From Phage NC-G, in sequence record MK310184: a DNA stretch of 64,000 nt. The stretch is one strand, 5' to 3'. Positions 13,312-14,264 of the stretch are shown in pieces. Below the pieces are notes generated by a model. It saw only the letters and a program-made list of their open reading frames with translations. It made no database searches and had not been told where the DNA came from. The position numbers and the translations under genes were made by a program. The stretch's first letter is position 1, and each line of letters starts with the position of its first letter.

Positions 13312-13319
13312 TATTTATA
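13312..13319 (-). promoter_or_regulatory. T4 late-promoter motif TATAAATA
   Basis: Exact TATAAATA on the minus strand, directly after a terminator hairpin and upstream of the 13285 start. Confidence 0.5.
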
Positions 13320-13320
13320 C

Positions 13321-13348
13321 AAAAAAGGCCCAACCTTTCGGAAGGGCC
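13321..13348 (-). terminator. Terminator hairpin closing the tRNA cluster
   Basis: GGCCCaacctttcggaaGGGCC followed by TTTTTT on the minus strand. Confidence 0.5.
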
Positions 13349-13399
13349 TTTAACCTAGGGTAACCTTGTCGGGGTTCCACCTGCTAGGGCAAGTGTTTG

Positions 13400-13491
13400 T
13401 ACGAAACGCCGGGATTCGAACCCGGTTATTAAGCAGTTGACGCTACTCAATATTTTTAAAAGGCCATATCTCGACCATATCCGAACGTTCC
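13400..13491 (-). ncRNA. tRNA-like RNA with acceptor stem and T-arm but no canonical anticodon arm
   Basis: Perfect T-arm CCGGG-TTCGAAT-CCCGG; 7/7 acceptor pairing between CGGAACG (13491..13485) and CGTTTCG (13407..13401); no D or anticodon stem could be built by hand. Confidence 0.35.
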
Positions 13492-13559
13492 GTCAAAACG
13501 CTACTCGGCTTACGGCAAAGATATTTCCTCGAATCGATAATTCGATGCGCCGTTTCAGC

Positions 13560-13660
13560 TGTGATGTAAGGGAACATTAACAGATCGTAAAGATTTGTTA
13601 ATGCCAGTCCTTACCCAGGGAACATCAGTCCGACGACTTACCGGTAGCGACCCGGTTTCT
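13560..13660 (-). ncRNA. Structured small RNA candidate between the tRNA-like element and tRNA-Arg
   Basis: Nested inverted repeats (CATTAAC/GTTAATG, GTAAGG/CCTTAC, TGATGT/ACATCA, CCGG/CCGG), no ORF; T4 carries two stable small RNAs in its tRNA cluster. Confidence 0.3.
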
Positions 13661-13663
13661 TGT

Positions 13664-13739
13664 TTGGTCGAGACAGTAGGGATCGAACCTACGACCCAGG
13701 ACTTAGAAGGTCCTTGCTCTTCCTTCTGAGCTATGCCTC
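13664..13739 (-). tRNA. tRNA-Arg (anticodon TCT)
   Basis: Hand-folded cloverleaf: acceptor CGAGGCA/TGTCTCG, D-stem GCTC/GAGC, anticodon stem AGGAC/GTCCT with loop CTTCTAA, T-arm GTAGG-TTCGATC-CCTAC, encoded CCA. Confidence 0.8.
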
Positions 13740-13743
13740 GTAT

Positions 13744-13818
13744 TTGGCGGACGTGCATGGATTCGAACCATGGACCAATTGATTAACAGTCAACTGCTCT
13801 ACCACTGAGCTACACATC
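13744..13818 (-). tRNA. tRNA-Asn (anticodon GTT)
   Basis: Hand-folded cloverleaf: acceptor GGATGTG/CACGTCC, D-arm GCTC-AGTGGTA-GAGC, anticodon loop CTGTTAA, T-arm CATGG-TTCGAAT-CCATG, encoded CCA. Confidence 0.8.
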
Positions 13819-13822
13819 CAAA

Positions 13823-13896
13823 TTGGTGACCCTGGGTGGAATCGAACCACCATCCAGCGATTATGAGTCGCTCGCTTGACCGTCCAGCTACAGGGC
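13823..13896 (-). tRNA. tRNA with CAT anticodon (Met, or Ile if lysidine-modified)
   Basis: Hand-folded cloverleaf: acceptor GGCCCTG/CAGGGTC, anticodon stem AGCGA/TCGCT with loop CTCATAA, T-arm GGTGG-TTCGATT-CCACC, encoded CCA; D-stem slightly imperfect. Confidence 0.7.
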
Positions 13897-13973
13897 CAAT
13901 TCTATTATGAAAGGTTCTTTGAGGGAAGAACCTTTGGTAATAGAGGGTACTTATTAATAATAACACATAACTC

Positions 13974-14264
13974 TTAAAGCATATTAATGTATGTGCTTTT
14001 AATACAATTAAGATTCAAAGGATTTTTAAAAATATCATAATCCTCTGGACCTGTTTCAGTTTCAATAAAGAAATCAAAATTCACCGTATTGAATTTACGG
14101 TCTTCAAAAACCAATTTAACATTGGAATGGCTACGACCTATTTCAACACTTTCAACTTCAAAACACGTTAAGATGCCATAATCGTCAATCAATTGCTTTG
14201 CGGCATCTTGGTCTGATTTATACCCGTTATTAGCCTTGTCACCTATAGATGCGTAAAGAATCAT
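13974..14264 (-). CDS. Hypothetical protein, 96 aa
   Basis: ORF in the track. Confidence 0.4.
   Translation of the reverse strand: MILYASIGDKANNGYKSDQDAAKQLIDDYGILTCFEVESVEIGRSHSNVKLVFEDRKFNTVNFDFFIETETGPEDYDIFKNPLNLNCIKSTYINML

Follow-up and report, generated by a model that had tools for sequence, protein, structure and literature searches.

The window analysed here is a 64,000-nt stretch of Phage NC-G (record MK310184), and the segment under study (13560-13660) lies within its tRNA gene cluster. The phage is T4-like, the 711 nt around the segment matching 769 phage records, nearly all of them Escherichia, Shigella or Yersinia T-even relatives, with the best matches to MN04, PhAPEC2, the JS98/JS10/IME08 group and PSD2002. 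All features around the segment are on the minus strand. The unit starts with tRNA-Met (CAT; 13824-13897), followed by tRNA-Asn (GTT; 13745-13819), both identified by ARAGORN and Rfam, and by tRNA-Arg (TCT; 13665-13740; ARAGORN, and the Rfam tRNA model at 63.8 bits). A possible T4 middle-type promoter (13957-13981, minus; TGCTTTA, a 12-nt gap and TATTAT) precedes tRNA-Met, as read from the sequence with what we take to be the MotA-dependent consensus; the block matching it is also kept upstream of the T4 tRNA cluster. On the 3′ side of tRNA-Arg, ~340 nt of the minus strand contain no credible gene. The tRNA-rnaD-rnaC unit is closed by a terminator-like hairpin (AAAGGCCC...GGGCCTTT and a T run; 13318-13351, minus) made of a perfect 8-nt inverted repeat (13324-13331 with 13344-13351) followed by TTTTTT, which a simple terminator scan omitted because its loop is above the limit of the scan. 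A phage ORF (13285-12731, minus) lies downstream of this hairpin.

Identity of the segment as T4 rnaD

In the T4 reference genome (NC_000866), rnaD (71053-71171; species 2 RNA, 119 nt) is located directly 3′ of tRNA-Arg and is followed by rnaC (species 1 RNA, 139 nt). The same order of tRNA-Arg, rnaD, rnaC and terminator, on the same strand, is found in the window. Here the entire rnaD unit, as placed by the T4 alignment and supported by covariance model R1 (see below), occupies 13544-13663 (minus) and begins one base past tRNA-Arg as in T4; a 6-nt spacer, GAATTA (13538-13543, minus; coordinates mapped from the T4 annotation), separates it from rnaC (13400-13537, minus). Alignment of 13663-13544 with T4 rnaD showed 102 identical positions out of 121 aligned columns, with 3 gap columns. 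The initial annotation had placed the segment between tRNA-Arg and a tRNA-like element, and this arrangement was borne out, the element (13537-13400) being rnaC with 136/139 positions identical to its T4 counterpart. It had further proposed that the segment was either an equivalent of the stable small RNAs of T4 or a novel small RNA. The first proposal was right, the segment being the T4 rnaD ortholog by both sequence and position, and the second found no support.

The 120-nt rnaD stretch matched 734 phage records, 96 of them at ≥99% identity, and at least 80% of its length was covered in 629 records. The rnaD label is given in some records (e.g. RB9, RB55, T4T and T2L); in most, the stretch is unlabelled or labelled “hypothetical protein”. 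The rnaD gene was mapped in T4 as early as the 1970s-80s; RNAs C and D are among the oldest orphan RNAs. Its sighting here is therefore a rediscovery of a gene with near-identical copies in hundreds of public phage genomes, mostly unannotated. The ortholog itself was already known; the family-level fold, the distribution and the hypervariable arm described below are new. Annotators could drop the spurious “hypothetical proteins” across the rnaD locus.

The segment had been described as free of ORFs. This holds in that it contains no credible gene, but mechanical ORFs of 44-67 aa do overlap it. These extend into tRNA-Arg or rnaC and are disrupted by 1-2-nt indels among close relatives. The indels among rnaD relatives are not multiples of three and the compensatory changes are of the RNA type, as expected of a non-coding gene. 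No known RNA family was recovered for rnaD either, in line with the Rfam search suggested at the outset. Rfam 15, whose families include self-cleaving ribozymes, Y RNA/YrlA, SRP, 6S and tmRNA, was run at gathering and permissive thresholds on the window and four relatives, and gave no hit overlapping rnaD in the window at E ≤ 10 and none overlapping the rnaD elements of W70, PG7, KM16 and CR9 at E ≤ 1. The weak hits obtained (Plastid-ycf2, YrlA, tRNA-Sec and tmRNA_permuted) fell on tRNAs or on rnaC. ARAGORN reported only the Met, Asn and Arg tRNAs, and no Rfam tRNA-clan hit was found in 13544-13663 at E ≤ 10.

On every feature examined, namely homology, position, covarying fold and non-coding character, the window belongs to the T4 rnaD family. 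The best explanation as a whole, including the fold, is that 13560-13660 is the core of an rnaD gene (13663-13544, minus), to which we assign a probability of about 0.85; the identity as rnaD and its processing, taken jointly, are held with greater confidence still.

Fold and distribution of the rnaD family

The nested inverted repeats reported for 13560-13660 were confirmed. The outer pair (TGATGT/ACATCA, 13562-13567 with 13622-13627) encloses a middle pair (GTAAGG/CCTTAC, 13566-13571 with 13609-13614) and an innermost 12-nt pair that is 92% complementary (13575-13586 with 13592-13603), and a separate palindromic hairpin is present at 13639-13646. Folding of the 101-nt segment was likewise positive, giving -32.1 kcal/mol on the minus strand (z = -2.84, with 0/200 shuffles as stable), and the full-length element (13544-13664, minus) gave -36.8 kcal/mol (z = -2.67, with 1/200 shuffles as stable). 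The plus strand of the 101-nt segment folds nearly as well (-30.1 kcal/mol, z = -2.40), so that folding energy alone cannot assign the strand. The minus strand was assigned from the three minus-strand tRNAs and from conserved U.G wobbles, which on the opposite strand would turn into A.C mismatches.

The interval 13560-13660 lies inside the real unit but does not delimit it. It omits most of the 3′ strand of one helix, P3 (13557-13560), and the whole 3′ strand of another, P2 (13547-13552), and its single-sequence fold is therefore partly wrong. A mini-hairpin, AGUC/GACU, seen in the 101-nt fold was rejected as an artefact of losing 13547-13552, since the strand with which GUCGUCG really pairs falls beyond the interval and the GACU arm is absent from short-form relatives.

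Covariation supports a fold made of a 5′ hairpin, P1, followed by a rod of P2, P3, a CCC bulge and P4. A single-stranded, A-rich leader, AACAAGAA (13657-13664, minus), runs from the CCA end of tRNA-Arg to P1, and purine-rich leaders of 7-11 nt are likewise found in W70, KM16, PG7 and Kp122. P1 (13640-13656, minus) consists of an ACCGG/CCGGT stem and a 7-nt loop, GTCGCTA, with pair probabilities of 0.92-0.99; its sequence covaries among relatives (ACCGG/CCGGT, GCCGG/CCGGC, TCGGG/CCCGA, TCAGAA/TTCTGA and GCGG/CCGC) and its shape is kept. P2 is a long-range helix formed by G(T)CGTCG (13631-13637, minus; T13636 bulged) and CGGCGC (13547-13552, minus). Its sequence and its U.G wobble are almost invariant across both phage lineages in which the family occurs, its cells are 100% paired in 38 distinct sequences, and compensatory change was observed at two positions (G-C to A-U and G-C to C-G). 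P3 pairs TGTT (13621-13624, minus) with AGCT (13557-13560, minus) and varies between 3 and 6 bp across the family, with 5-6 covarying bp in the short-form phages. Its outer pair in 17 T4-type sequences is U-A in 13, A-U in two and U.U in two, the window having the U.U mismatch. The CCC bulge at the P3/P4 junction (13618-13620, minus) is almost invariant across the family: its columns are invariant in the short-form alignment, and in the T4-type alignment CCC is present in 16/17 sequences, with CTC in that of VR5.

P4 (13562-13617, minus), supported by the inverted repeats, the folds and RNAalifold, is the long variable arm. It is built on a TG/CA base (13617 and 13616 with 13562 and 13563), followed by GTAAGG/CCTTAC and by an apical stem (13605-13596 with 13582-13573). 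Among relatives, P4 comes in at least five types of unrelated sequence, including that of the window and T4, that of T2, that of JS98/SP18, a short one with the conserved loop CCCTCAACGAT and a long Klebsiella-phage one, and every one folds as a hairpin. The motif TTCCCTCAA is shared by the short-form P4 loop and a hairpin upstream of tRNA-Met (13919-13927); this was treated as a coincidence, because it occurs once in the window against 0.7 occurrences expected and the equivalent hairpin of T4 lacks it.

The short-form copies share with the window only two sequence blocks, AAGTCGTCGG...YCCCTG and ACGGCGC, and are for this reason informative for covariation. In 12 short-form sequences, 90.5% of cells were paired as compared with 33-43% with slid partners, and 12 pairs had changed on both sides as compared with 3-6 in the slid controls. 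Across 39 distinct sequences, aligned by fitting to the covariance model and thus leaning towards the structure, 86% of cells were paired (35-48% when slid) and 15 pairs showed double changes. RNAalifold on the 17 T4-type sequences by themselves recovered P1 to P4, and most homologs adopt the P1-P4 architecture when folded singly. Related phages clearly share a conserved structure. In the window, the consensus fold (-34.8 kcal/mol) lies 2 kcal/mol above the minimum free energy fold (-36.8 kcal/mol), and the P2 pairs have a probability of only ~0.03 in the single-sequence ensemble.

The family was widened by Blast seeded with the rnaD-like elements of more distant phages, and model R1 was built from 12 short-form, non-T4-type sequences only (Karam-, Jiaoda-, Moon- and Certrevirus and Vequintavirinae). 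R1 gave a single hit in the window, the rnaD element (13541-13661, minus; 48.7 bits, E 6.7e-9, full model length), and recovered every T4-type copy. As a model without T4-type sequences finds the window, the family spans two phage lineages infecting Enterobacterales, and the rnaD architecture is common to Straboviridae (Tevenvirinae) and Vequintavirinae phages of this order. Beyond the T4-type phages, members occur in Karamvirus, Jiaodavirus, Moonvirus, Certrevirus and other Vequintavirinae (W70 and A5-4). The element lies inside a tRNA gene array in every case: T4-type phages carry it after tRNA-Arg, Karam-, Jiaoda- and Moonvirus after tRNA-Asn, W70 after tRNA-Met, and CR9 between tRNA-Lys and tRNA-Asn. 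It stands 7-11 nt past a tRNA in most relatives and directly after the trna.2 ORF in T2-type phages. The evidence indicates that rnaD has been transferred between phage lineages as a unit and is a self-contained module. It is also inherited independently of rnaC: VR5 retains rnaD and has a precise deletion of rnaC, rnaD persists in VR20 and ECML-359 with an ORF replacing rnaC, and Karamvirus and Gelderlandvirus have an rnaC-like copy between tRNA-Trp and tRNA-Gly, apart from any rnaD.

Scans of IMG/VR returned few loci (5 to 17 per scan). A host origin was rejected, rnaD plus rnaC having no match in 5,426 complete E. coli genomes. Bacterial copies were rejected as well: when 185,579 bacterial and archaeal genomes were scanned with a strict pattern, the 23 hits all scored ≤17 bits and are attributable to chance; many came from taxa whose G+C is known to be high.

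Processing, proposed function and alternative explanations

In T4, a single precursor of ~1.75 kb contains the tRNA cluster together with segB and the two small RNAs (PMC2330249). RNAs C and D build up late in infection as discrete, stable species without a known function (PMC3014915, PMC9697503); Northern blot validation has been reported for the stable late RNAs, with the RNAC probe alone described (PMC9697503). No function was assigned to rnaD in the literature searched. As known from T4, the long transcript of the tRNA operon would include rnaD. Host tRNA-processing nucleases would then cut the A/U-rich single strands on its two sides, AACAAGAA in the leader (13664-13657) and GAATTA in the spacer (13543-13538), and the closed helices at both ends may shield the excised RNA.

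We tentatively suggest that the mature rnaD acts in trans as a factor-binding RNA, a reading that we regard as possible and hold with low confidence. A factor of the host or the phage would dock on it through the P2 box and the CCC bulge, with P4 as a fast-evolving, host-specific surface. The core sequence is frozen though pairing alone would permit change, which suggests specific recognition, and the transfer of rnaD as a unit and its persistence without rnaC likewise point to a trans-acting, factor-binding role. A published evolution experiment bears on P4. Three lines of the T4-like phage BW1 adapted to E. coli ECOR34 had only one mutation in common, a T-to-C change in rnaD, and this SNP raised virulence from 0.17 to 0.98 (PMC12685909). 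As read from the approximate coordinates in that paper, the SNP lies ~41-45 nt from the rnaD 3′ end, in P4 (PMC12685909). It is consistent with a host-specific role of rnaD, as a suggestive observation and not as proof; it could also be standing variation in the stock, and the hypervariability of P4 could be mere lack of constraint.

The strongest alternative, somewhat unlikely in our estimation, is that rnaD is a cis-acting spacer or processing module and the stable RNA a by-product without its own function, its helices insulating the neighbouring RNAs from misfolding, giving entry to nucleases and guarding upstream 3′ ends. The constant location of rnaD within tRNA arrays, directly past a tRNA or (in T2-type phages) the trna.2 ORF, fits such a module, as do its A/U-rich single-stranded flanks and the tolerance of P4 for full sequence replacement. 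T4 mutants with the tRNA region deleted are viable, growing on laboratory strains, which also agrees with a spacer and means that any role of rnaD is conditional. For such a module, however, hairpins alone would suffice, yet the P2 sequence, the U.G wobble and the CCC are kept in Tevenvirinae and Vequintavirinae, rnaD moved as a unit between phage lineages, and adaptation to a new host selected a point mutation in it on three occasions (PMC12685909).

It is improbable that rnaD is a base-pairing regulatory small RNA whose C-rich motifs (the CCC bulge and UUCCCU-type P4 loops) pair with the G-rich Shine-Dalgarno regions of mRNAs. A GTTCCCT-type motif does occur twice in several forms, at the P3/P4 junction and in P4 (in the short form, in the loop CCCTCAACGAT), but the second copy is missing from several P4 types and the CCC bulge is only 3 nt long and enclosed by helices. 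Moreover, in an antisense target search covering the 64 kb of phage sequence, the only match to GACTGATGTTCCCTG, a conserved sequence queried as its reverse complement, was the element itself, with 1.16 chance matches expected; the host was searched by similarity.

HDV-like (“theta”) and other self-cleaving ribozymes have been reported beside phage tRNA genes, and a ribozyme freeing the upstream tRNA 3′ end would agree with the start of rnaD one base past the CCA of tRNA-Arg in T4, with its 7-11-nt distance from a tRNA in most relatives and with an invariant core carrying a peripheral variable arm. This is nevertheless very unlikely. Neither the long nor the short form is overlapped by any Rfam family (limits of E ≤ 10 for the window and E ≤ 1 for the relatives), the fold is an unknotted rod plus hairpin without the nested double pseudoknot, the leader is A-rich and variable, and rnaD is not tRNA-adjacent in T2-type phages and CR9.

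A decayed tRNA gene or a small protein-coding gene has hardly any probability: the tRNA-array site, the 5-bp stem and 7-nt loop of P1 and the overlapping ORFs of 44-67 aa would suit one or the other, but nothing was detected by ARAGORN or the Rfam tRNA model even at E ≤ 10, the covarying fold differs from a cloverleaf, and the ORFs extend into tRNA-Arg or rnaC, with 1-2-nt indels disrupting them in close relatives. Equally far-fetched is a DNA-level or antisense feature, either a terminator on the plus strand, with the P1 complement as its hairpin and a T-rich run after it (the terminator scan lists ACCGGTAGCGACCCGGT then TTCTTGTTTG at 13640-13656, plus) or a homing-endonuclease target in what is a known homing and recombination hotspot (PMC2330249), as all surrounding genes are on the minus strand, the two terminator-like sites in the scan compare with 1.0 expected by chance, the conserved G.U pairs and compensatory changes indicate selection on the minus-strand RNA, and the RNA is made in T4 (PMC9697503).

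A broader form of the factor-binding reading, which we consider doubtful, would make rnaD the founder of a phage-only RNA family, with P2 and the CCC bulge as the dock for a host factor and P4 as an arms-race surface. Such a family would be represented in several hundred to ~1000 sequenced Tevenvirinae and Vequintavirinae genomes (the estimate for matching genomes is ~900-1,000), with exchange between lineages, and P4 would act either as an RNA decoy that counters a host factor of defence or of RNA metabolism, or as the part seen by a host immune sensor. If this were true, one base change in P4 could turn a semi-permissive host into a permissive one. Apart from these proposals, an RNA without an Rfam family now has a covariation-supported fold and a link to a published convergent adaptive SNP. 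The by-products are a module found in two phage lineages, always in tRNA arrays, and a hypervariable arm beside a frozen core. The fold, the distribution and the variable arm together make the old question of rnaD function open to experiment.

Comparison with known systems

Phage decoy or mimic RNAs such as pseudo-ToxI and the RNA anti-CRISPRs, and bacterial Y RNA/YrlA (the latter also tied to tRNA-like modules), are small, structured and non-coding, belong to mobile elements and bind a host protein. They offer a functional analogy only: rnaD differs in having no sequence or model match to them, the YrlA hits falling on true tRNAs only. Mimicry of a CRISPR repeat was considered and rejected. 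Against shuffled repeats, the similarity of rnaD to what we take to be the E. coli type I-E repeat was at chance level in the window (p 0.49) and T4 (p 0.24), with W70 also within chance (in the range p 0.24-0.49) and PG7 marginal (p 0.027, uncorrected), and the GC hairpin of the repeat is absent from rnaD. HDV-like and other self-cleaving ribozymes beside phage tRNA genes resemble rnaD in being compact and structured, in lying directly 3′ of a tRNA and in having a peripheral arm that varies, but rnaD has no overlap with an Rfam family, shows no evident pseudoknot and is not always adjacent to a tRNA.

The stable RNAs of phage T5 (RNAI, RNAIII, RNAIV, RNA1, RNA2, RNA2H, RNA3 and RNAX; NC_005859) are closer in setting. 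Like rnaD, they belong to an E. coli phage, are stable and are interleaved with tRNA genes; they are ~70-700 nt long and all eight are annotated “with unknown functions”. They were rejected as relatives of rnaD, as R1 run over the T5 tRNA region with filters off gave a best score of 8.2 bits (E 2.1).

T4 rnaC is like rnaD in being co-transcribed with it, stable, of unknown function and kept in many of the same phages. It differs in having a large tRNA-like fold with an acceptor-like helix and a canonical T-arm. The rnaC consensus fold has this helix formed by the 5′ and 3′ ends, a T-arm of CCGGG-TTCGAAT-CCCGG and two long arms; a weak tRNA-Sec hit falls on it at 13401-13493. An acceptor stem pairing CGGAACG with CGUUUCG was rejected, because RNAalifold pairs the 5′ and 3′ ends instead, with one covarying pair.

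The closest system is T4 rnaD itself, which has the same length of ~120 nt, the same place between tRNA-Arg(UCU), one base away, and rnaC, 6 nt away, and the same P1-P2-P3-CCC-P4 fold. The differences are the U.U mismatch in the outer P3 pair of the window, a P4 that differs at ~30% of positions with compensating changes, and the 3′ tail, which is A-UC in the window, A-CC in most relatives and A-CCA in T4. Mimicry of a tRNA acceptor by P2 and this tail (GGCGC-A-CCA in T4) was rejected, since the tail is not conserved: Karamvirus has C-GAAAG with a hairpin after it, and Jiaodavirus has U-GAAAG. In contrast to rnaD and rnaC, the tRNA-Arg genes of T4 and the window are identical at only 40/76 positions, which places a mosaic boundary at the tRNA/rnaD junction.

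Fold of rnaC and its separability from rnaD

By predicted fold, the ortholog of T4 species 1 RNA (rnaC; window 13400-13537, minus strand) is an oversized tRNA-like RNA, with an acceptor-like helix built from its 5' and 3' ends and including one covarying pair, a canonical T-arm (CCGGG-TTCGAAT-CCCGG) and two more arms, one of 10 bp and the other a long extra arm. The rnaC-like copy of Karamvirus UFV01 was called by ARAGORN as a 95-nt tRNA-Met(CAT). Comparison of related sequences indicates that rnaC and rnaD, the T4 species 2 RNA, are modules separable from each other. A precise deletion has removed rnaC from VR5 (L007), an ORF replaces it in VR20 (L008) and ECML-359 (L009), and a lone rnaC-like copy lies between tRNA-Trp and tRNA-Gly in Karamvirus (L010/L012) and Gelderlandvirus (Melville, L011).

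Variation within and around rnaD

A sharp mosaic boundary was evident in the window between tRNA-Arg (13665-13740) and rnaD (13544-13663), with tRNA-Arg matching T4 at only 40/76 positions whereas the adjoining rnaD and rnaC share 84% and 98% identity, respectively, with their T4 counterparts. In T2-type phages (L026, 1343-1693), tRNA-Arg and rnaD are separated by an inserted ORF, trna.2, whose stop codon overlaps the rnaD start. Within rnaD, phages that are otherwise close differ in the variable P4 arm (window 13562-13617, minus strand, and relatives), of which no fewer than five versions unrelated in sequence exist. This arm also appears to contain the convergent adaptive SNP that was reported for the rnaD gene of phage BW1 (PMC12685909).

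On the 3' side of the rnaD-like element, Karamvirus and Jiaodavirus genomes (PG7, L033 776-920; Kp122, L034 776-906; and relatives) carry a tight hairpin, CCGAAAGTTTACTTTCGG, followed by ~130 nt more of non-coding sequence up to tRNA-Asp, and the stretch between the rnaD-like element and tRNA-Asp may be another structured RNA. Some records annotate a small ORF in this stretch.

Other signals near the tRNA unit

A perfect 10-bp hairpin, AAAGGTTCTT-CCCTCA-AAGAACCTTT (window 13910-13935, minus strand), lies downstream of a block resembling a MotA-type promoter (13981-13957) and upstream of tRNA-Met, with no T run 3' of the stem; the T4 equivalent has a different loop. The motif TTCCCTCAA is common to the loop of this hairpin and that of the short-form rnaD, a sharing compatible with chance. 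On the plus strand, the complement of the 5' hairpin P1 (13640-13656) and the TTCTTGTTTG after it score together as a terminator-like site, which the P1 hairpin and the A-rich leader probably generate as a by-product. TATAAATA (13312-13319, minus strand), the T4 late-promoter consensus, directly follows the T run of the terminator and precedes ORF 13285-12731 by 26 nt.

Related elements in other phage groups

Outside Straboviridae, rnaD-like elements were found in the Vequintavirinae member Escherichia phage W70 (L025, 1493-1595, directly 3' of tRNA-Met), in Cronobacter phage CR9 (L032, 678-779) and in a third locus (L040). They share the P2 box and CCC bulge of Straboviridae copies, whereas P1 is different yet fully compensated and P4 is short. 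Their occurrence implies that the rnaD module has been transferred between phage lineages with Enterobacterales hosts in common.

Phage T5 (L078, NC_005859, 28-42 kb) has eight annotated stable RNAs "with unknown functions", none related to rnaD and some tRNA-like. They lie interspersed among the T5 tRNA genes. The presence of orphan stable RNAs within tRNA arrays is thus general among large virulent coliphages.
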